Virus record (IMG/VR): IMGVR_UViG_3300028635_000004
Span: 1-64,000 of that record
DNA: 64,000 nt
DNA from: a virus
Taxonomy: Duplodnaviria > Caudoviricetes
Reading direction: 5' to 3' (one strand)
Shown: in pieces, positions 17,201-60,936 of the stretch
Numbering within the stretch: the first letter of the stretch is position 1
How the letters are laid out: every line of letters starts with the position of its first letter
Notes under the pieces: model-generated
Told to the model about the DNA's origin: nothing
What the model saw: only the letters and a program-made list of their open reading frames with translations
The model's database searches: none
Position numbers and translations under genes: made by a program

Positions 17201-20200
17201 GATGGCAATGATGAGTATAATCTTTATGTACATAACTCTGACTTTTGGAACATAGCTGCCCCATTATCTATTCTTTTAAAGGGTGATGACAAAGCAAGCG
17301 AGGAGTATATATTAGAACAAAGGATTGGTACTCGCGAATTTAGGTTTACTTTATTAGAAGAGTTATTAAGGTCAGATATAGCTGTAGCGAATAACCTTGA
17401 AAGACTTGGCGGTCACTTAAATAGGGTTTCTACATATGGTACTATACACGAAAGACTTGGGGACGACCTTACTGATGTAGACCTGTGGGTTGGTATTACT
17501 GATACAGACGGTATTGCATATCCTTTTGTAGAATCTGGTGTTAGGGGACAATGGGAGACTGTACCAGGTAGTGTATTATTTAGGACAAACAAAACACTTA
17601 CTGGTGAAGAAATATTTGTACCTGCTACAATATCATCTTTATCCAAAGAACATGCTGAGATAATATGGGACTGTTATTTAATTTTAGCAGCTGGTTTTCC
17701 ATACTCTTCAAAGTTAAATAGAGATGATATTAAGAATGCTACAGTAGGTGAGATACTTGACTTGTTAGTTACACAAGGTGAGAAGGTATCAAACTTAATG
17801 CAAGACGAGAATCAAATATTATATTTAAAGGGTAGACAAGAGTTACACTTTGGTAAGCACATTATTAAAGATATAACTAAAGCCACTGATGCACAACGCG
17901 GTGAATTCATTAAATGGGCTAATCAACATAAGAAATATAAAGTACCGTTTGCTGTTAAGGGTTTAGGTTTTAGACTTAACTCAAAATATAAGACTAGGAC
18001 TGGCATTAAAATTGGTTCATTTGAACTTAAGCCAAATGATGATAGGACCTGGGCTCAAATGATGATGAGCACTCCTATATCTACTGGTAAAGCTGGTAAT
18101 AGGTATGCTGTTGTTACTAACGTTGAAAGAGTTGTAGACGAAAAGACTGGTGAATTTAAGGAGAGTATAATTCATTCTCCATCATTAAAGGTTAGGGACT
18201 TAGACGTTAAAGGTTACAATAGGGATTCTACTACAAAAGAACCAGTTACACCAGTTACACCAGAGCCTACAGTTGATGTTACACCTACTACTGAACCTGT
18301 TGCTAATAGTTTAGACGAAATACTTGGTTCTATCGAAGTTATAGGTGGTGACGATGCTGTTGTTGGGTTTTATAGGAATAAGGAAGTTGAAACAACAACT
18401 GAAACTGTATCTGATGCTGAGTTTACTTGGTTGAAGAACAGACTAAAGAGTGGTGCTACTGTTGAGATGTCAGACCGTTTTATAGAGATTGTTAAAGACG
18501 GTCAGTCAAAACAAGCTTATGGCGCATTTAAAGCCAGTGCTATATATCTCTATAGTGGTGCTGTAAAGGGTACTATATATCATGAAGCATTCCATAGGGT
18601 ATCTTTAGGTTACTTATCAGACGAAGAGCGTGAGCGTTTCTATAATAATGCAAGGGTTAAATATAATATGCCCGATGCTACTGATAGTGAAATTGAAGAG
18701 AAACTTGCTGAAGAATTTAGGTTGTGGCGTAATCACAAAGAATTAAACGCTGAAATTGAAGGTGTTTCTATATTTGATTGGGTTAAGAATTTATTTAACT
18801 TTATTAAACATTATTTTACTGGTGCCAATGCTATACAGAATTATGAAGTAGAAACATTGTTTAAGTTAATAGATCGTGGTGCATTTAAATATCATAAGAT
18901 CAAGCGTTCAAGGTTAAAGGAGTTAGCTAATGTTGAGGCACCGTTAGAGCTTAGTACTTTAGGCGAAGGCTTCTACGATGTACCATTTGTTAATACACGT
19001 GCTGAGTTTGAAGATTTCATTAAAGGTCTTGGTACAATACTTATTATACAAAACGATATAAGGGACTTAGCAGACGTTAAGTCAATGAACTTTCAAAGAA
19101 TGTTTAGTTACATCTATGATAAGTTTATACCAACTCGTGAAAAGACTGTAGTAAATTTAAAGAATTATTTAGCTGCTGGTAAGTTTAAGGAAGGTGAAAC
19201 AGCAGAACAAATACAAAGTATTATAAATGATTTTGAACGTTCTATAGCATTATATGAATCAATAAAAGAACCCAAGTATCAAAAGATATATATGAGTCAT
19301 TTAAAGAAAGTATTAAGGACTGAGTATGGCATTAATGTTATATCAAAGGATGATAGTGACTTATTAATAGACGAGGACGAAGAGACTATGTCACCTCAAG
19401 AGTTAATAACAAGGTATAGCAAAGAGTCTTTTGAACTTAATATTGTTGATAATGTAACAGCTAATGTTAAGTACTTAATCTCTATATTACCTAAGTCTTC
19501 AAAGATCAATCCTATAACTGGTACATATGAGTTTGTTAAGTTTAAGGAGACATTTGATAGTTTATTGTTTCACTTATACAACTTAGACTCTTTGGAAGAG
19601 ATGTTAGACAAGTTGGAAGAGCTTGGTAAAACCAATCATGCTTTCTCTGTACTACATAAGCGGTTGGTTCGTGGTTCACCTAACTTAAGAAATCAATTTA
19701 AGGTTGCTATGAGTAAGCATAAACATTTATATATCAACTTTACATACACCAGGGATTATGGTAAGTATGATACTCCTATATATCAAATATTTAGGGCTGA
19801 TGTTAACAGAGCTGAAGAAGCTGAGAAGTATGACTGGGCTGAACAATTCCTTATGTCAGAATATATGGATCATGGGGAAAAGGTAGGAGACGTGCAAAAG
19901 CTCAATATAGAACGACTTACCAAGGTTTATGAGGATTATGTTAGCTTTGAGAAGGAAGTGCGTAGAAACGCACGAAAACAGCTCTCAGCGGAGGAATTAG
20001 GTGCTTATGCTGATAGGTTCATAGAATTAGTACGTGCAGTAAGGATTGACATTGACAAGACTATCCTTGATGCATATATAGCTGGTAAGGTTAGGGCTGC
20101 TGGTCGTAAGTCTTTTGGTGTTAAGGAAGCATTAGTAAACTTAATTACAAGCGAATTTACATCACAACCAGGTCGTGAAGAGGATCCTGCTGGTTACTTC

Positions 20201-51524: not shown

Positions 51525-52091
51525 TTATTTAAGATTTTTCAAGTCTTCGAAACCTTCGAGTACTTTTACCTTAACTTCGACATGATTATTAAAATCTGAT
51601 AACTTCGTTTTAATGTCAGCTATGAGTTTTTCTGTCTCAGTAATTTCTGCTTTAATTTCTGTTAGACGTTTTTCAATATTTCGCTTACTAGTAAGTTTCT
51701 TATTGAGTTTATGACCAGGATTACTGCGTTTAGTGTCCTTTTCACCGACTTTCTCTTCGAGGTCGATGTAATTCTCACCTTTACGCTCTAAGTCCCTTAA
51801 AGAGGCTAATTTCCTGTTTAAAGCAGATAATTTGTATATGTAGTAATTGTTTGTATTTCCGTCCGAATGAGTATTGTTTGTGTTAGCTTGCTGAATAGCA
51901 AGTTTAACCTCAACAAGTTGCTCATCAATTGTGGTTATAGTGTCGTCTATATCCTTAATTTTTCGAACATCATAATCCTTAGTAAATAATAAATTATACT
52001 TTTTCTGGATGTTCATACGAATTAGGATTTCCAGATCGACCTTTGCTTCAATTAGTTTTTCAAGTTTTATTGTCTTTTCTGCAAATTTCAT
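51525..52091 (-). CDS. Helical coiled-coil protein resembling the DIP1984/DUF6847 family
   Basis: MKFAE...KLAIQQAN...KLSDFN.HVEV pattern recalled for this family. Confidence 0.45.
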   Translation of the reverse strand: MKFAEKTIKLEKLIEAKVDLEILIRMNIQKKYNLLFTKDYDVRKIKDIDDTITTIDEQLVEVKLAIQQANTNNTHSDGNTNNYYIYKLSALNRKLASLRDLERKGENYIDLEEKVGEKDTKRSNPGHKLNKKLTSKRNIEKRLTEIKAEITETEKLIADIKTKLSDFNNHVEVKVKVLEGFEDLKNLK

Positions 52092-52131
52092 AATAGTTGA
52101 TTTATGTTGATAGAGTGCCTGTATTCCCTAA

Positions 52132-52776
52132 TTAACTTACTCCAAATAAGTAATCATTTACCTCTTTTAATTGATACATTTTATGTGCAAATTCATTACC
52201 TGTATTAGCACCTATGAATTTAAGCGGATTAATTGCAGAATTATTACGCCTTAATTCAAAGTGGAGATGACAAGATTTGCCCCAAACGAGGCCAGTTTGA
52301 CCACCAAGGCCAATAACATCCCCAAAATGTACATAATCTCCTTCTTTGACTTTTATGTCATTTAAATGTGCGTATAGCGTACTATACTCATCATTGTGTT
52401 TAATGATTATGTTGTTACCATAACCAATTTTGGAGTACTCAACTCTTATTACTTGACCAGAACCAGAAGCCATAATTGGCTCATTTTTTTCTACAATTAC
52501 ATCTATACCTTTATGTAATAATACTACACGTAATATAGGATGTAATCTGTAGCCATATTTACTTGATAATTTGAAATCAACTGTTGTGTCAATTTCAATA
52601 AAAGGATATAATGGAATGTTTGATATACCAATATGATTGATGTCTAGTTCTTTACTAATGCTTACCACTTTTTCTAACTTTATAGTATTTTCTATTCTTT
52701 CTTTGTCCAAAATTGGAGCAAAACTAGTTAATGTTGAGAATAAGAACATACTTAAAGTTATAAGAAGTTTCTTCAT
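52132..52776 (-). CDS. Exported M23 family peptidase
   Basis: N-terminal signal/TM; HKGID, YAHL and HLHFE. Confidence 0.88.
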   Translation of the reverse strand: MKKLLITLSMFLFSTLTSFAPILDKERIENTIKLEKVVSISKELDINHIGISNIPLYPFIEIDTTVDFKLSSKYGYRLHPILRVVLLHKGIDVIVEKNEPIMASGSGQVIRVEYSKIGYGNNIIIKHNDEYSTLYAHLNDIKVKEGDYVHFGDVIGLGGQTGLVWGKSCHLHFELRRNNSAINPLKFIGANTGNEFAHKMYQLKEVNDYLFGVS

Positions 52777-52972
52777 AACTAAAGATTTCGTTCATATTTG
52801 CATATCTCTTAAGCCGATATGCTAACCTCGCTAACACTTGATTGAGTCGGCTTATATTGTACGCTATAATTAAGATAAGGTTACTATGTTATTAGTAAAA
52901 TATCGAAATTATGGTACTCAAAAATAAGGTAAATGGTAGCCATAAAAGACTACCACTTACCTATTTTGTGTG

Positions 52973-53539
52973 CTATGCTGCACTGAGTAACCCTAGTGCA
53001 ACCCTATTCGGGGGAGACCTTAAAAATGAAATCTCCCTGAGTATAGCGTTTTTAATAATAACTTCAACTCTGTCTGTTGAATCAACAACTAAATTCTTGG
53101 CAGAATCAAGTACTTCTATAATACTAAGTACTAAAGAAGCGTGTTTATCCCTTACATAACCATAAATTTTGTTGATATAGTATTCAACATATAAGGGTTC
53201 TTTAATAGCACCCTTACGTAATAACTCCCTTAATGAAATATTATTAGCTTTAACAGAGGATAAGTTATATCGTTTCGCTACAGTATCCGCATATAAGTAA
53301 TCTATTCTGTCTTTGATAGAATTACTTTCAACACTCGATGTGTCCATAATTGACAATGCAATGTCAATATCAATTTTCATTGGTTTAAATATATATTGTA
53401 ACAAGTTTGTACCAAGCATTAGTTTACCTGATTTATTCACTCCCACATATTTAAACTTAAAGAAAACTGCTGAACATTTTACGATTTCTTTGAGCTTCTT
53501 TTTATAAAGCTTGGATAAAGCGAAAGCGTCCCTTATCAT
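52973..53539 (-). CDS. Hypothetical protein (188 aa)
   Basis: ORF track; co-oriented. Confidence 0.55.
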   Translation of the reverse strand: MIRDAFALSKLYKKKLKEIVKCSAVFFKFKYVGVNKSGKLMLGTNLLQYIFKPMKIDIDIALSIMDTSSVESNSIKDRIDYLYADTVAKRYNLSSVKANNISLRELLRKGAIKEPLYVEYYINKIYGYVRDKHASLVLSIIEVLDSAKNLVVDSTDRVEVIIKNAILREISFLRSPPNRVALGLLSAA

Positions 53540-53548
53540 GATAGATTA

Positions 53549-54115
53549 TCATAAAAGTTTTTGCAATTGATGTAAGACGGCTGCATCAGAGTTGAATAAA
53601 CCCTGTAAGCCCACAAATAATACAAATGATGTAGCCAGTGCTAATATTAAACCAATAATTATAAATAATGTAGCATGTGTTGCGTCTATATGTCTTATCC
53701 GCAGTACTTTTGCCCATAAATAGAATAATAATAGCAAAGGAATCACTATTGCTACAGCTTTATTTGTATTACTTCGTCGCACAGCAGTACTTATATCGTC
53801 CTTTGTCATACCAAAATTTGATGTAATATAAGATATCTTCGCATCACTCTCCTTATAGACTACATTATCTATTTTATTGTCCAATAAGGCAATGCGAGAC
53901 ATTATACCATCATATTCTGTTTTACTTGAGGTTTTTAGTTCATTTATTTGAGTGTAAATAGAACTAACATCCTGAATAGGTAATTTGACATCTGTGGCTT
54001 TAACTTCAATGTTAAGCCTTAAAGTGTCATCTGGCGCTCGTTTTACTGTCTCTTGTGCAGTTAGTGTAAAGAGTGGTAATACGAGTAATGTTAAAAGAAC
54101 TAATAATTTCTTCAT
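53549..54115 (-). CDS. Membrane protein: signal peptide, periplasmic domain, two TM helices
   Basis: MKKLLVLLTLLVLPLFTLTA signal peptide and two C-terminal hydrophobic segments. Confidence 0.65.
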   Translation of the reverse strand: MKKLLVLLTLLVLPLFTLTAQETVKRAPDDTLRLNIEVKATDVKLPIQDVSSIYTQINELKTSSKTEYDGIMSRIALLDNKIDNVVYKESDAKISYITSNFGMTKDDISTAVRRSNTNKAVAIVIPLLLLFYLWAKVLRIRHIDATHATLFIIIGLILALATSFVLFVGLQGLFNSDAAVLHQLQKLL

Positions 54116-54552
54116 TAGTATAACTCTTCTTTAAGTTGACCCCTGAGGAATTCAACAAGATTAGTATATGAATGAAGAATTTTCTCAGCATTAGCAACCT
54201 TATCTTCCATAAAGCTACGCCAGTCAATGTGAGCCTTTTCTTTGTCAACATATACCTTTTCAAAGATACTTACTTCTCCTTCAGGTACACTAAGGTCAAT
54301 GTCATGTTCGCCATTGATGCGAAGAGTTTTACCATCTGCAAGTACATTCATATCAGTTATAAACACTGATACTATTACTGCAAAACCAGTAACATCAATA
54401 TTGTTGATAACTCTTCCTTCAGCAACGCCTTCTTCAGCGTCTTCGAGTTTAATCATATAAGCATCTGTGAACATGTTCGGAATACGCTCACGAACATTCA
54501 TTGCTGAGAAATCAATTTCTAAGCCTTTTGCAGTTGATTTTGATTTAGCCAT
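54115..54552 (-). CDS. Hypothetical acidic protein (145 aa)
   Basis: ORF track; stop abuts the next start. Confidence 0.6.
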   Translation of the reverse strand: MAKSKSTAKGLEIDFSAMNVRERIPNMFTDAYMIKLEDAEEGVAEGRVINNIDVTGFAVIVSVFITDMNVLADGKTLRINGEHDIDLSVPEGEVSIFEKVYVDKEKAHIDWRSFMEDKVANAEKILHSYTNLVEFLRGQLKEELY

Positions 54553-54556
54553 TTTT

Positions 54557-55015
54557 TTAGTGTTTTTGATTCATACTAAAAGATTTATTTGTTTGCAAGT
54601 TTTTCTTTAGTAATTTGGACTCAAATGGAATATAACAAACCTTGATTGTCTCAGACCTGGTCGTGTCTTTGTATATTAATACACTTGTTTTCCCAGTAGG
54701 ACTGTCAAATTTGTCATAATCTTTTATAAGTAATAGCCACATGTTTACTAAGATGGGATGCTTGCCCCAATAGATTTTAGGTAACCTGTCTATTTTCTTT
54801 GGCCATAGGCTTTTATATGGTCGTAGAAATGTACAAGTACCTATGTAGATTTTCAATAAGGTTATGTTCCACTTATTAAATAGGGTTATATAAGATATTT
54901 TATATACCTTATATGAATTTTTTATTCCACCAACGTTTGAATCTTTAATTAATTTACCACCTTTTATTATCGGTACACAACTTCGTGTTAACTCAAAATA
55001 ATAATATGTTTTCAT
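54557..55015 (-). CDS. Hypothetical basic protein
   Basis: ORF track; probable start MKTYYY at 55015 after an A-rich leader. Confidence 0.5.
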   Translation of the reverse strand: MKTYYYFELTRSCVPIIKGGKLIKDSNVGGIKNSYKVYKISYITLFNKWNITLLKIYIGTCTFLRPYKSLWPKKIDRLPKIYWGKHPILVNMWLLLIKDYDKFDSPTGKTSVLIYKDTTRSETIKVCYIPFESKLLKKNLQTNKSFSMNQKH

Positions 55016-56368
55016 TTTAGTGTGGTTATTAATTAAAAAAAGTAGAGACATAAACAATCGGAGAATGCAAACTCATCTTCAGACAAGTAAATCACACTTA
55101 CTTCTCCTCTGTTGCTTTTAAGCAATAATTAAATTGCTCATTATGGTCTTGCTTATGCACTCTACACTATTAATTGGTAGTTAAAGCACTTATTATGCTA
55201 GCCTACCATAGCGTAGAATGTGTCCTTTTAATGAACATACAATAACTGTTGTAGATTGACATATTCCTATGCCATTCGATGCTCGGCCTCCATACTATTA
55301 TATACATTTATAAATATAGAATAACTTTAACGTCGTTATCACTAACACCCGTGTTCCAATTTTCACATTGGCAGCTACTACTAGACGGATCAATATTCAC
55401 TTGTTAACCCTACTTTGCTCATGTCAACTGTAGACATGAGCCTAACAGTTTTCACACTAGCTTATTAGGTAAGTGATGGTTCACCTAATAGATTTCGCAC
55501 TCCTATATAATAAAGAAATAATAATACTTCAACGGTTGCGTGTCTGAGTACGCACCAACTCAGTCTGGCTTGTTTAATATATTCACCGTCACTTGCTGTA
55601 ATATACCGCTATTTTACGTCAGTGTATTATCTGTGCAGTCTAACATAATTAAGCTACAATATTAAACCCAATAAACCGCTATATACTATGGTTCAACATT
55701 AATTAATACCTATAATCCACGCCATTTGCAACTGTCGCTTTATAGGCATCGGGCCCCTTTGCACTCCCTTGGATACAATCTGTTGATTGGTAGGATTCAA
55801 ACCTACGTAGCTCCCGCAGAGCACCCGATTTACTATTAATTCGTTGTAGTATATAACTTATCGACATATCGCTAATTAATTCCTTTCGTCAGAAAGGGGT
55901 TAGGATCTTAGCTTTTTATCAACCCAAATTTGTCTACTGGTAGTCGTCCCAACTTATATTAACGTATAGTTGGCAAATACGGTACCTTTAGGTTTTGATA
56001 ACCCGTGCTCTCATTACTAGTACAATACTCATAAGAGATTCGTCAGTAGCTTTAGAGACTTAAATTTTTCACTGGGAATCCCACCCTGTCGCTACGTGTT
56101 TGGTTGTTAATAAAGTGAATGTGGGCAAGGCTATTGCGTTTAGTCAACATCATATTGACATCAGCACAGCATGGGCACATCGTCTGAGATAGTTGCGGCT
56201 ATCTACGCCTATAAAATTATGAGTAGTATAGACTATTTGATGTGTTTGTTCAGTGCGTCACACAATTGTAACACGCTAATATTTCTCAGCAGATCCTCAG
56301 TCACATTTGACCTCCCTTGCCATCGCAATGCGCAGTTGCTAATATTAAGCGCCACTTTATCGTCTCCA
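55016..56368 (-). ncRNA. Candidate large structured non-coding RNA region (one long RNA or several)
   Basis: About 1.35 kb with no credible ORF in an otherwise gene-dense genome; many stems, with G-U pairs favouring the - strand; tRNA-like module; H-type pseudoknot; ends in a stem plus U7. Confidence 0.55.
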
Positions 56369-57853
56369 CTATTGGTTCAAAAATTCTACTTTGTATAGAA
56401 AGTTTTTGTCCAAAAGACCCCAACGGTTATATTTGAGTGCCGTTGCTGGGATTTGACCAACAGATGTTATTTGAACTTCTTCGGGTAACATTTCTTGGTT
56501 CACCCTTTTAATTTGTCCCTTCATGATTTTATCAAAGAAGAGATAATTAATTCTATTTGCATCAAGGATGGCTTCGTCTACGTCTAATGCCAAGAAGTAC
56601 TTACCTTGCCACCATATTAATGCACAATCCTTAATAAAAGGAAATGAATTAAATATTGATTCAATGTATGCTGGACATACACCATTGGAGAAAGCATAAC
56701 CTACATACTTTGCATAATTACCGTGTGGGGTAAATAATACATGAGTATGTATAGACCTTATAGAATCATCATCTCTATACATCAACATAAGTTCAGATGT
56801 TTCATCAGAAGCTGTGATTTTATTATCAGATAGTAGAAGATGTTTTCTCTTACTTTGTGTCATGGACACTGACAATGTATGCAAATCGGGCAGCATAGAA
56901 ATGTAGCCTGGTTTCTTGCACAGACCAAAAAACATTAGAAACTGTTGTTCCCTATGCACATTGTAAATAGTTGAGTGTCTTAATTTTTCTGATATCTCTG
57001 CCAAGAGAGAGTCTGTTATTAGACCCAACACAATTATGTGCTTAAATGATTTAAAATATCTTTCAAACTTCCTAATAATTAATCGTATAATAATCCTACC
57101 TAAATACTTATGGAAAAACCATTTAAATAATAGTTTATTCTGAAGTGTATCTGATAGAATCTCTCTCCATACAGCACGATATTCTTCATATGGGATATAT
57201 AATACCCTATCGTTTTCAAGCTTAAATTTCTCCCCATGCATAATTTCGTATCTTTTATTTATGTTATAAGGGGTTATGCCATGACGTAGTAATACTAAAT
57301 AATATATGAAGTATTCATCTGTAAGATTGTAGAAACAATGAACTTTGTTTAGTAACTTCTCCCTGCCAAGAGATGATTCAAGATGTCTAAACGCAATAGC
57401 AAAATTAAGTTGATTAGTAGCAACTTTTCGCATTATATCTGAGTATAAAATCATCATGAACGATGGTGAAATATCAAATATATCTGCATTAGCATTTGGT
57501 TCAATTTCAAGAATAGTGTTAAATTCTGTAATTTTTGCAAAAATGCTGTCACTCTTAATACTAATTTTACTATCTGTTATGATATAAGGTTTGTGAATTT
57601 CAGTAAGATGCGATATTATCTCTATCTTTGTCATATTTGTAGGTATAACGTAAAATGTTTTACCCCTTATCATGAGAGCCAGTCTCATAAGGATATTATA
57701 TCTCACGTCTTCTATAAATATGATTGGAGAATATGGATATGCAACATCTCTGTCTAAAGTGTTTATAAATTTTAAACACTTAATTAACTGAATTTTATAC
57801 CACGATGGTAAAGATTTTATCAGCTCGCGTATCAAAGTAAAATAAACTCCCAT
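56369..57853 (-). CDS. Highly diverged long-chain acyl-CoA synthetase (ANL/AMP-binding) homologue, probably inactive
   Basis: The C-terminus (YIESIFNSFPFIKDCALI...RVNQEMLP...) and central region follow the layout I recall for Bacteroidota FadD-like enzymes, but the YTSGTTG and GYGxTE motifs are absent. Confidence 0.55.
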   Translation of the reverse strand: MGVYFTLIRELIKSLPSWYKIQLIKCLKFINTLDRDVAYPYSPIIFIEDVRYNILMRLALMIRGKTFYVIPTNMTKIEIISHLTEIHKPYIITDSKISIKSDSIFAKITEFNTILEIEPNANADIFDISPSFMMILYSDIMRKVATNQLNFAIAFRHLESSLGREKLLNKVHCFYNLTDEYFIYYLVLLRHGITPYNINKRYEIMHGEKFKLENDRVLYIPYEEYRAVWREILSDTLQNKLLFKWFFHKYLGRIIIRLIIRKFERYFKSFKHIIVLGLITDSLLAEISEKLRHSTIYNVHREQQFLMFFGLCKKPGYISMLPDLHTLSVSMTQSKRKHLLLSDNKITASDETSELMLMYRDDDSIRSIHTHVLFTPHGNYAKYVGYAFSNGVCPAYIESIFNSFPFIKDCALIWWQGKYFLALDVDEAILDANRINYLFFDKIMKGQIKRVNQEMLPEEVQITSVGQIPATALKYNRWGLLDKNFLYKVEFLNQ

Positions 57854-57854
57854 A

Positions 57855-58217
57855 TTATTTGATTTTTGCAAGCATCTTACCACCTAAACTTAATTGTTTG
57901 ACTGAAAAGTCTAACCAATTTTGGTGTATTGTAATAGCATAATACCTTGTTTTGTCACTTTTTTCTGTAACAGTACTACAAACAAGTTTGAGATTTTCTT
58001 CAATTTCATCTCCTAAGAAAATGTAGAAGAATGCATCTTTCTTTGAGAAATCGTCAATGTAGTCAATGAGTTTAAAAGCAGTATCGGTAATTTTCTTTGC
58101 CACAGAATATGTACCTACTACTGTTTCTGCATACTCAAGACTCATTGCTTTAAGTTTGAACAAATACTTAATTAAGTCTTTGTCAACTTCTGGTAAACCA
58201 GCGTTCAATATTGCCAT
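57855..58217 (-). CDS. Hypothetical protein (120 aa)
   Basis: ORF track; abuts neighbours. Confidence 0.6.
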   Translation of the reverse strand: MAILNAGLPEVDKDLIKYLFKLKAMSLEYAETVVGTYSVAKKITDTAFKLIDYIDDFSKKDAFFYIFLGDEIEENLKLVCSTVTEKSDKTRYYAITIHQNWLDFSVKQLSLGGKMLAKIK

Positions 58218-58218
58218 T

Positions 58219-58704
58219 TTAGTCTTTTTGATTCATGATAATGTCAAATAAAGTACGTATTTCAGGATCACGTTTTATAGGTTTAATCTCTTCTAATACC
58301 CTTGCTAATTGATTGTTATCATTGAGCATTAAAGAGCCTTCGTTTATAAACATTGGACCTGTTTCAAATGTTTTAAAGAATAGTATATATTCTTTACCAT
58401 CGGCATCATATAACTCTATATAACCACGATAAATATCTCTTGTAGATAAATATTCAACGTTAATGTCAAAATTAACACCTTTTAGTAAAGGTAACATTAA
58501 TTTTTTAATATCATTTTTATATTCAACTATAAGTCTATCGCTTTCAGCTATTATAGAGTCTATAAACATAACAGATGGTGGTGAAGAATAAAGTCTGCTA
58601 TAAATAAACTTCATTCGTTTTTGACGACGATTCATTTTCTTGAGCAGGGCAATTTGCTCTGATAAGAAAATAATACGTTTACAAACTGATTGTTTCTTGC
58701 TCAT
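58219..58704 (-). CDS. Hypothetical protein (161 aa)
   Basis: ORF track; A-rich leader. Confidence 0.6.
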   Translation of the reverse strand: MSKKQSVCKRIIFLSEQIALLKKMNRRQKRMKFIYSRLYSSPPSVMFIDSIIAESDRLIVEYKNDIKKLMLPLLKGVNFDINVEYLSTRDIYRGYIELYDADGKEYILFFKTFETGPMFINEGSLMLNDNNQLARVLEEIKPIKRDPEIRTLFDIIMNQKD

Positions 58705-58723
58705 GATAGTAATTATTTAAAAG

Positions 58724-58852
58724 AGGTGTGACGTCTACCCTATGGGTATTAGCCCACATTAATTGTAAATATATCGCCTACAAATAGAAAAGGATGAACT
58801 ATTTGTATTTAATATAGATACATTAAATATAGATTTTTTAAACGTCACACCT
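58724..58852 (-). promoter_or_regulatory. Structured intergenic element upstream of gene 58219-58704
   Basis: 11-bp perfect closing stem AGGTGTGACGT/ACGTCACACCT with internal hairpins. Confidence 0.5.
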
Positions 58853-58860
58853 AAATATTA

Positions 58861-60936
58861 TTAACTCTTAGGTTCATTTACAAAACCTTTAATGTCTGCT
58901 GCAAAAGCAATCTTATTAATGGCATTGTAAAGTTCACCTACTTGAGCACGTTTATAGCTAGACCTTGCAAAGGACTTTTTATCACGACGTGCTGAATATT
59001 GTATTAAATTCGCACATTCGTTACGAATAGTCTTTATCTCTTTACCTTTTTCTATCGAGTCTTTAATAAAGTCGACTACAGCATTAATAAATTTCTCTTT
59101 ATTACTTGCTGCACAGAATACTTTCTGCCACTCCGCATTTGAATCTACTGCTTCCTCAGTGGTTTCTACAGGATGTAGTTCAGTTTCTGCATCTACTTTG
59201 TCATTTTCATCAAGTTTAGGCTCAGTGTTTAACCAAGCTTGCACTTGTTCGATAGTCCACCGAAGAGGTTCCTTAGAATTTGCAGTTTCATATACTTTAT
59301 TATCTGCAAACGCGTTAGCAATTAATTGAAGAACATAAGCATTTTGCTCTTCATTGCCAATATATTTCCTACTTAAGAAATATATATCTTCTAAGTATTT
59401 AGCATTTTCAACTTCAGTTTTAATTTCAGGAAATTTGTCGTCAACAGGAACGTTAGGACCAACGATAACCACAGATTCTTTATTAGATTCGCTTGTGGTT
59501 TGTTTGGTAGTTCCTGATTCACCTTGAAAGGGTTCACCAGCAGCAATATCCAATGTTTTGGTTCTTGGTAATTTAATCTTTGCTTCTTTAATTAAATTAT
59601 CAAATATTGCTTTTGCTGATTGTAATGTGATACTGTTAAAGCCTTTTTCGTTTAAAACTTTTTTAAGTTCTACGACTACTGAGCCAGGTTTTACACTTCC
59701 TTTAGAAAGTTCTTCACTTTTCTTAAGAATATTATCCTTATAGAAATCAGAAATTAAAGTATTCTTTAATTCCTTGTTGTCAGCTTCAAACTTTGCTTGT
59801 GCTTCAGATTTGTTTTTAACCCTTAAATGATAGTCTACAGTATTGGCGAAATATTTATCCCATGCTTTGTCAATATTAGATTCTTTGATATAATCATCAA
59901 GTCTTTCTATTGTTTTCTCAGTATTGTCACTCATAAATTTAATGAAAGCGTCTTTAACTGATTCAACAGTAGCATTGTCCTTCTTAACCTCGCTTTCTAC
60001 AAACAAGTAGACGTCTCTGTAAGTTATATCATACCAGGGAACTTCTTTAGCATCTTCAATTACACCAGTATCAGAAGACATGCCTTCAACTATTTGGTTG
60101 ATGTATGTTTCTATTGCTTCATTAGTCCATTCAATGTCTTCCTTGTCAGCATCTTTATATGCTTTCTTTGAAAGAATGAATGTAGCAAACTCTAAAGCAT
60201 CGTGTGGTTTATTGTCAATGATAAGAGACCTGATGACATCACCTACTTCAGCTAACGTATACCTGTTAATATCAGTTTTGTATTTGTCTTCAAGAGTTTG
60301 AATTTCTTCAACAGCTGTTTGAACAGTTTCTTGGCGTTTGTTCTTGTTACGCCTTAAGTTATTAACTTCTTTTAAGAAGCCATTAATCTTTTTAGCTTCC
60401 CATTTTTTAGGATTTTTAGCTTTATATAACCCTTGTGAAAGGATATAATGAGCAATTGAACTGGCTTCTTCTTCAGTAAGTTCCATTAAAACTGATTTTA
60501 AAGCATTGACGTCAAATTTATTGATATATTCATCAAATGTTTTTTCTTCGTCTTTAACAACTCTCAAATTAGTTTTTGAAGGGTCTTCCTTAGGAATTAT
60601 AGCCAATGCGTCTTCCTTTTTAGGAGGTTGATGGACCATTGTTGTTGATTCATCTTTTTCTGTAGTGACCCCTGTAGTTACATCAGAATTAGTAATGTTA
60701 TAAACACTAATTGTAGTGTCAATTGCCTTTTCTAATATATTGTAGAGGTTCTCAATATTTTTCCTGCACCTTTCTTGCTCTTTGGGATGGGCAAGTTGTT
60801 TTCTCTTTTCCCATATATCAATAGCAAGATTGATTTTGGTTGGATCAGTAAGTAATATTTCCTTTAAAACATTAACTTCCTGGTCAACCATGTCTTTTAC
60901 GACTTCAAGATGAATTAAGTTTTTCGCTGTATTCAT
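58861..60936 (-). CDS. Hypothetical helical protein with three internal repeats (691 aa)
   Basis: Uninterrupted ORF; three copies of a helix-Y(K/E)xxx-W-helix unit. Confidence 0.65.
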   Translation of the reverse strand: MNTAKNLIHLEVVKDMVDQEVNVLKEILLTDPTKINLAIDIWEKRKQLAHPKEQERCRKNIENLYNILEKAIDTTISVYNITNSDVTTGVTTEKDESTTMVHQPPKKEDALAIIPKEDPSKTNLRVVKDEEKTFDEYINKFDVNALKSVLMELTEEEASSIAHYILSQGLYKAKNPKKWEAKKINGFLKEVNNLRRNKNKRQETVQTAVEEIQTLEDKYKTDINRYTLAEVGDVIRSLIIDNKPHDALEFATFILSKKAYKDADKEDIEWTNEAIETYINQIVEGMSSDTGVIEDAKEVPWYDITYRDVYLFVESEVKKDNATVESVKDAFIKFMSDNTEKTIERLDDYIKESNIDKAWDKYFANTVDYHLRVKNKSEAQAKFEADNKELKNTLISDFYKDNILKKSEELSKGSVKPGSVVVELKKVLNEKGFNSITLQSAKAIFDNLIKEAKIKLPRTKTLDIAAGEPFQGESGTTKQTTSESNKESVVIVGPNVPVDDKFPEIKTEVENAKYLEDIYFLSRKYIGNEEQNAYVLQLIANAFADNKVYETANSKEPLRWTIEQVQAWLNTEPKLDENDKVDAETELHPVETTEEAVDSNAEWQKVFCAASNKEKFINAVVDFIKDSIEKGKEIKTIRNECANLIQYSARRDKKSFARSSYKRAQVGELYNAINKIAFAADIKGFVNEPKS

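Follow-up and report, generated by a model that had tools for sequence, protein, structure and literature searches.

What occupies more than a kilobase without a reading frame in an otherwise tightly packed phage genome? The question is raised by a locus in the window analysed here, i.e. the whole 64,000-nt stretch covering positions 1 to 64,000 of IMG/VR record IMGVR_UViG_3300028635_000004, from an uncultivated wastewater phage. This is a distant crAss-like phage, the best matches of its DNA polymerase being 'cr' Crassvirales genomes in GenBank at ~32% identity. Positions 55016-56368 lie between two minus-strand genes, p504 upstream and p166 downstream, and the block found there shares its minus-strand direction with the surrounding replication and nucleotide-metabolism genes. 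We consider it highly probable that 55020-56368 is the gene for one large structured non-coding RNA (ncRNA) of the minus strand, ~1.35 kb long here and ~1.8 kb in a distant relative, lying outside Rfam. The best reading is that it represents a new family, an ornate phage RNA of the GOLLD/ROOL kind. The feature in question is the following:

55020-56368, minus strand: conserved non-coding block, the probable body of the RNA gene (homologues L032, L004, L085 and L156; covariation; RNA contigs)

Coding capacity, homologues and family searches

No open reading frame (ORF) of at least 60 aa was found across 55016-56368 under genetic code 11, under code 4, or with TAG or TAA read as glutamine. With an 80-aa cutoff, the largest ORF-free gap in the 90,327-bp record is 55058-56368 (1311 nt), followed by gaps of 747 nt (at the contig end) and 679 nt. 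The ORF calls under four codes and the ranking of gaps over the whole genome therefore bear out the initial annotation of this DNA, which had singled out the region as the largest such gap. Further gaps of 627-679 nt, at the same cutoff, occur beyond the window at genome coordinates 65063-65741, 67882-68508 and 69154-69815, just past the divergent switch between two gene arms. The G+C content of the block is 0.37-0.41, compared with ~0.30-0.33 in the flanks. Comparison of its six read-through frames with Pfam and PHROGs gave chance matches only (E > 0.06), and each of the small ORFs (30-54 aa) on either strand is disrupted in relatives by frameshifting indels or stops. That is, the block holds neither a protein-family relic nor a conserved small ORF, which disposes of the concern that it might prove to be a decayed protein gene.

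Eighty IMG/VR loci were fetched using the nearby ribonucleotide reductase gene (nrdJ) as an anchor. Full-length homologues occupy the same position in L032 (5094-6381; 81% identity over 1305 nt) and L004 (5146-6393; 69% over 1310 nt), the p504 proteins of which are 53% and 41% identical to that of the window, respectively. In the three pairwise comparisons among these sequences the block shows nucleotide identities of 81.2%, 67.4% and 70.2%, against 65.7%, 56.6% and 61.3% for p504, and its identity exceeds that of 9 of 11 flanking genes (52-77%), only p214 and nrdJ being equal or higher. A profile of the p504 family (A2) run on JGI metagenomes retrieved at least two loci, one of them new (L085). 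In this fourth lineage a 1.7-kb ORF-free gap separates a p504 with 30% identity from a p166 homologue, and a three-sequence nhmmer profile matches the gap at E values of 3e-24 and 6e-12. L085 is exact for the 3′ core motifs ACUGCACAGAUAA, AAAGUAGG, CCGUCUAGU and AGUAGCU and carries a large insertion in the 5′ half of the RNA (~450 nt as aligned). The 5′ half is variable and the 3′ core conserved, indicating that the two halves of the RNA evolve differently.

A pattern scan of genome contigs gave 119 stretches, about the chance number as estimated, among which the only genuine one is a fifth copy, L156 (DHFP01000006.1), 97% identical to L004. This 8.4-kb contig is a fragment of an L004-type crAss-like phage with the gene order p691, p161, p120, p504, RNA, p166, p145, and is binned into the metagenome-assembled genome 'Clostridiales bacterium UBA4821'; since it carries the L004-type phage gene order, this placement is probably a binning artefact. 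The homologous set therefore consists of the window and four other contigs and makes up four lineages, L156 grouping with L004. The order p504, RNA, p166 is common to all four lineages, in which the block is inherited as a unit, and its divergence tracks that of the phages, which points to vertical inheritance. In the protein database, p504 forms nine clusters at 90% identity. Thus, the homologue search suggested as a check by the initial annotation has, through nhmmer and pairwise identities, found the block conserved above its neighbours. In the close relative L032 we also observed a group I intron at 19663-19900 (RF00028, 74.3 bits), ~8 kb downstream of the ribonucleotide reductase gene.

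Searches beyond this set were negative. Neither blastn of the block nor tblastn of p504 and p166 gave a match among 50,697 GenBank phages, single-protein locus searches of IMG/VR found nothing, and three IMG/VR DNA-pattern scans returned two known relatives and chance matches only. The literature searched contained no account of this RNA, nor of large ncRNAs in Crassvirales. When compared with Rfam 15 (4227 families) by cmscan at gathering scores, the block had no match, the matches of the window being three transfer RNAs (tRNAs) elsewhere; at E values up to 10 the region 54500-57000 gave only chance-level matches of small nucleolar RNA or microRNA type (≤23 bits), and the homologous regions of the relatives likewise matched no family. 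The covariance models of GOLLD (RF01998), ROOL, HEARO, OLE and raiA did not recognize the RNA in cmscan. No group I or group II intron model matched the block at E values up to 10, and the flanking ORFs are whole and separately conserved. ARAGORN detected no tRNA or transfer-messenger RNA (tmRNA) in the block or its homologues, among which the sole tmRNA-type match is a 13-nt Rfam tmRNA T-loop fragment in L085 (9.7 bits). The initial annotation, by eye, had been unable to match the region to GOLLD, ROOL, tmRNA or RNase P, and cmscan against Rfam 15 agrees. The RNA is not a member of GOLLD, ROOL or any other Rfam 15 family.

Helices, junctions and strand

Base pairs were predicted using no sequence other than that of the window, and their fate in L032 and L004 was then followed. 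Pairing was retained in 57 of 79 double changes (72%), compared with 17-28 of 46-61 (36-48%) when the partners were slid by 1-3 nt, a mean of 19.7 of 51.9 (maximum 31 in 200 shuffles) with random partners, and 42-57% in four coding controls. One-sided changes left the pair intact in 40% of cases in the block versus 26-27% in coding DNA. The three-way RNAalifold consensus reached -223.9 kcal/mol, as against -72 to -142 for coding alignments, with 6% broken cells compared with 12-14%. In the four-lineage alignment of the 3′ core (A6), 37 pairs form seven helices with 95.9% of cells paired; 16 of the 37 pairs are changed on both sides, whereas slid partners give 0-2 and none of 500 shuffles reaches the observed value. 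On a larger scale, a domain-closing helix spanning 260 nt contains ~10 compensatory pairs (alignment columns 889-931 with 1107-1149). Between them, the double changes and A6 answer the doubt, voiced at the outset, that the region might show no covariation. The main elements of the RNA are as follows:

55316-55500, minus strand: best-conserved 3′ core, seven helices and invariant junctions (A6; model R1 gives 130-195 bits in all four lineages)
55525-55685, minus strand: second conserved domain, invariant ACUGCACAGAUAA (55627-55639) and UUACAGCAAGU around an internal loop, with an ACUGAGU/ACUCAG hairpin
55370-55388, minus strand: invariant junction CCGUCUAGUAGUAGCUGCC, the same in the window, L032 and L004, and altered in L085 by one substitution and an insertion of 2 nt
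55417-55441, minus strand: 9-bp hairpin GCUCAUGUC/GACAUGAGC with a conserved UACA loop start (A6 helix 4)
55463-55490, minus strand: hairpin UAUUAGGU/ACCUAAUA (A6 helix 1; 4 of 9 pairs changed on both sides)
55357-55372, minus strand: first of two alike hairpins with a GUGAAA loop (direct-repeat family D4; A6 helix 7)
55446-55461, minus strand: second of the two GUGAAA-loop hairpins (D4; CUAGUGUGAAAAC invariant in three lineages)
55790-55806, minus strand: T-loop-type hairpin GUAGG-UUUGAAU-CCUAC, stem changed yet kept in all four lineages

In helix 4 of A6, both sides have changed in 6 of the 9 pairs, and 97% of cells are paired over the four lineages. The sequence of the 55463-55490 hairpin is nearly all replaced in L004 and L085 with its pairing retained, and in L085 both this hairpin and helix 4 keep 9 bp with almost all bases different. 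The stem of helix 7 covaries as CCAAU/AUUGG, CCAGG/UCUGG and CUGAU/GUCAG. Of the other stems, AGAUAG/CUAUCU and GUCAA/UUGAC read AAGGGA/UCUCUU and GUUAA/UUAAC in relatives, and CCAACU/AGUUGG and CCUUUC/GAAAGG are also present in the block. The individual stems listed in the initial annotation are found at the positions it gave, most of them backed by compensatory changes in relatives. In the second domain, the A5 consensus fold contains 33 pairs, 8 with compensatory change, and L004 and L085 carry the motif without change. Loops of GNRA type (GCAA, GCGAAA) occur as well. The T-loop hairpin takes the forms GGGGG-UUGGAAU-CCUUC in L032, GAGG-UUGAAAU-CCUC in L004 and GGG-UUCGAAU-CCC in L085. Of the tRNA-like module proposed initially, this conserved hairpin is the part that stands; neither ARAGORN nor Rfam detects a tRNA or tmRNA. 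As read from the alignments, the combination of covarying, variable helices with frozen junctions is the pattern of RNAs with a tertiary core. No conserved palindromic loop suggestive of dimerization was seen by eye.

The sense strand is the minus strand. The covariation-supported helices contain ~22 G-U cells and one A-C cell, and this large excess (~22:1) means that pairing is strand-specific, hence that of RNA. The consensus energy given above is that of the minus strand and compares with -165.0 for the plus strand; the folding energy of the window sequence alone is -362 on the minus and -307 on the plus strand. A strand test on the whole-length minimum free energy (MFE) structure computed without G-U pairs was indecisive (184 G-U versus 146 A-C), and the strand was therefore judged on the supported helices instead.

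Transcription and competing explanations

Among public sequencing data, 20 runs of activated-sludge or biofilm origin contain the stretch, including six metatranscriptomes; three metatranscriptome assemblies (X1, X16 and X18) were compared over 52000-60000. In X16 (45 Mb in total), a contig covering 55069-56511 has a depth of 20.8, with neighbouring pieces at 0-13; the contig ends at 55069, and downstream of it the depth drops to 0-1.4. In X18, the contig 54939-56622 has a depth of 22.5 versus 0-7 nearby. Both assemblies have zero depth over 56806-57339, inside p504, so that the signal must come from RNA and not from carried-over phage DNA. The block is thus present in RNA libraries above the depth of its neighbours, which meets the objection, anticipated in the initial annotation, that the region might not be transcribed. 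The contigs reach upstream to 56511 and 56622, and the RNA may therefore start inside the end of p504. Candidate signals at the two ends are:

55035-55047, minus strand: CUCUAC followed by U7, probable terminator region or 3′ end (unchanged across the window, L032 and L004; similar in L085)
56383-56412, minus strand: candidate sigma-70-like promoter TGGACA-18-TAGAAT (10 of 12 consensus positions; inside the last codons of p504; weak)

In addition, a 13-nt long-range complement (85%) was observed between the last codons of p504 (56385-56397, AAAGUAGA) and the segment before the U-run (55034-55046, UCUACUUU), 1338 nt apart. Its GUAGA/UCUAC part is invariant in all four lineages, so that there is no covariation either way, and it competes with a GGAGAC/GUCUCU closing helix predicted by RNAalifold.

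In X1, two contigs start with Illumina adapter sequence exactly at 52969 and 58593, suggesting that many fragments end at these positions. The first lies 4 nt past the stop of a minus-strand ORF (52973-53539) and may be a transcript 3′ end.

Several observations weigh against a single discrete structured RNA. The MFE z-score of the whole block is -3.1, compared with -5.6 and -4.2 for flanking coding segments of the same length, and local 200-nt z-scores in the block are unremarkable. The description of the region as densely base-paired in the initial annotation is not supported by this comparison, and its own caveat that the region might fold no better than shuffled sequence turns out in effect to apply, the z-score not exceeding that of coding DNA. 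Consequently, it is sequence comparison and expression, rather than thermodynamics, that support the case. RNAalifold reports 75 'compensatory' pairs in the block, which has far fewer variable columns, versus 59-66 in coding controls, and the many such pairs in coding alignments mean that raw counts need caution. Four lineages are too few for a statistical covariation test of the R-scape kind. The expression evidence consists of assembled contigs, which carry no information on strand, ends or single-molecule continuity, and in X1 one contig (52969-57096, depth 64.8) spans the block together with four downstream genes, the upstream genes having depths of 3-9. Finally, neither a promoter nor a canonical terminator was established for the RNA by consensus and terminator scans. 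The initial annotation had the region ending in a stem plus U7: the U7 run exists (55035-55041, minus strand), with no canonical hairpin preceding it in the terminator scan.

These points notwithstanding, the block is non-coding, is conserved, contains compensatory helices and occurs in RNA libraries, all of which are generic hallmarks of a structured ncRNA gene. The proposal made from the letters alone, of an undescribed large structured RNA, is supported by the lack of an Rfam match, by conservation, by covariation and by depth in RNA libraries.

The main live competitor, which we judge unlikely, is that the block is a precursor of several smaller structured RNAs cut from a common transcript and each acting alone. 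The best-supported helices are indeed local hairpins or domains of at most 260 nt, the 5′ half is variable (with the insertion in L085) next to a conserved 3′ core, and assembled contigs are no proof of a single molecule. However, each of three runs has a single contig that covers the entire block at an even, high depth, the 260-nt domain-closing helix has its ~10 compensatory pairs, the block is inherited as a unit in the four lineages, and no recurring internal promoter or terminator motifs were found in it.

Less probable still is a very long cis-regulatory untranslated region (UTR), either a 3′ UTR of p504 or a 5′ leader of p166. The block and both neighbours are read in one direction from the same strand, their synteny is conserved, and the RNA contigs enter p504 by 140-250 nt and, in X18, p166 by 76 nt. 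On the other hand, the block exceeds p166 in depth by a factor of 4-10 and the p504 body, at zero in two runs, by a wide margin, and the block is more conserved than either gene. A length of 1.3-1.8 kb with invariant junctions also exceeds that of any bacterial leader known to us.

A DNA element, i.e. a replication origin or packaging site with hairpins acting in DNA, is very improbable. The block does sit in the replication-gene arm and some of its hairpins are palindromic in DNA, but the supported helices pair in a strand-specific manner and the block is abundant in RNA libraries. Moreover, the turning points of the cumulative GC skew lie near 33 kb and 64 kb, away from the block, which contains no iterons or tandem repeats; the initial annotation's reservation that it might be an origin of replication thus finds no skew switch or iterons to sustain it. 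Lastly, a protein gene that has decayed or been recoded, or else a self-splicing intron or another mobile ribozyme, as could be imagined from a long gap in a tightly packed genome and from the group I intron elsewhere in L032, is largely refuted and has a negligible probability, given that no frame is opened by reassigning TAG, TGA or TAA, that there is no protein-family relic and no group I or II match at E values up to 10, that the flanking genes are complete and separately conserved, and that the divergence of the block tracks the phage.

Neighbouring proteins, other crAss-like loci and possible role

The two genes flanking the RNA are:

56369-57853, minus strand: p504, 494 aa, with a predicted ANL (adenylate-forming) fold; syntenic with the RNA in all lineages
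54557-55015, minus strand: p166, 152 aa from a conserved ATG at 55015, a small basic protein; syntenic with the gap in seven contigs (tblastn, alignment A7)

p504 has no match in Pfam, including AMP-binding, or in PHROG. Its AlphaFold model (pLDDT 70.8, pTM 0.72) retrieves DltA (7vhv) in Foldseek with an E value of 3.6e-10, a probability of 1.00 and a TM-score of ~0.53, along with hundreds of adenylate-forming enzymes (nonribosomal peptide synthetase A-domains, acyl-CoA ligases), and its Atlas neighbours are viral proteins with AMP-binding domains. p504 thus resembles the ANL enzymes in predicted fold, and the A10 lysine position is not conserved as judged by eye. Also by eye, an A5-like motif reads NTYGE in seven more distant p504 relatives and NVHREQ in the window and an 87%-identical relative. 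This replacement suggests that p504 may have lost catalysis in the window lineage, and its catalytic activity appears doubtful. For p166 no fold match was found (model pLDDT 64.5), and its model gave no support to a GIY-YIG assignment suggested by the Atlas (0.89). An antisense role of the RNA against another phage gene was also considered, and a search of the 90-kb genome gave chance 13-15-mers only.

Unannotated gaps are also found in other crAss-like phages. In a sister clade (L005, L006 and L007), whose ribonucleotide reductase is 59% identical to that of the window, an ORF-free block of 1.7-1.8 kb stands directly upstream of the p166 homologue (L005:3401-5215, L006:321-2034, L007:1-1046). 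Members of the clade share this block in conserved form, with pairing retained in 35 of 44 double changes compared with 9-15 of 26-31 in slid controls. No similarity between this block and the RNA of the window was detected by nhmmer, by covariance model R1 or by a search for the invariant motifs, and hhalign of the p504 family with a 563-aa ORF of L005 gave a 37-column match only, at 51% probability. In cr52_1 (NC_055888.1, Suoliviridae; L211:14440-16548), a 2.1-kb unannotated gap separates gp52 and gp51. This gap, which lies between a sigma-factor and a DNA-polymerase gene, resembles the block in its arm and direction; unlike the block, it has no R1 match and no sequence similarity, and the proteins flanking it are not homologous to those of the window. 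An annotated tmRNA lies 5 kb upstream of this gap.

The RNA of the window is ~1.5-2 times longer than GOLLD and ROOL, to which it nevertheless bears a likeness in kind. Both it and they are phage-borne and very large, with many covarying helices around invariant junctions, hairpins of GNRA-like and T-loop type, and a depth in RNA libraries above that of neighbouring genes; no function is known on either side. In contrast, the RNA has no sequence or structure match to either of them at any threshold and is not located beside tRNA genes, the nearest tRNAs being 5 kb off. As far as aligned sequences can tell, the covarying helices and invariant junctions point to a large RNA of the ornate class. 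GOLLD (RF01998) and ROOL are large ornate ncRNAs of phages and prophages that, according to cryogenic electron microscopy, form RNA-only homo-oligomers (PMC12286853). By analogy with them, the invariant junctions could make up a tertiary core capable of self-assembly or of binding a partner. The RNA would accumulate as a discrete, stable molecule ending near CUCUAC-U7 and would act in trans through its three-dimensional fold, and we favour a trans-acting fold at work during the replication phase, with the proteins of the module as the first candidate partners.

That the partner is a protein of this three-gene module (ANL-fold protein, RNA, small basic protein) is a speculation that we regard as doubtful, if worth keeping in mind. 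A wider proposal appears a good deal less likely again: crAss-like phages might keep a giant RNA at a fixed site in the early/replication arm, diverged beyond recognition (1.3-1.8 kb in the clade of the window, 1.7-1.8 kb in the L005 sister clade and ~2.1 kb in Suoliviridae), which here would form a ribonucleoprotein with the ANL-fold protein. In such a particle the RNA could be acylated or adenylated by the adjacent adenylate-forming-fold protein, or could be its scaffold. If true, this would be a new phage RNA-protein machine rather than a passive ornate RNA.

Few large RNAs fold around a conserved tertiary core and, to our knowledge, every known class of such RNAs is a ribozyme, a ribonucleoprotein core or, in the case of GOLLD and ROOL, a self-assembling RNA cage. 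The locus described here adds a family of RNAs 1.3-1.8 kb long, unrepresented in Rfam, and its fixed neighbourhood of ANL-fold protein, RNA and small basic protein provides candidate partners. It also indicates that kilobase-sized 'empty' gaps in phage annotations should not be dismissed as junk. The crAss-like phages rank with the most abundant phages in guts and wastewater. Together with the sister-clade block and the gap in Suoliviridae, the locus suggests that giant RNAs may be a regular, unannotated component of crAss-like phages.

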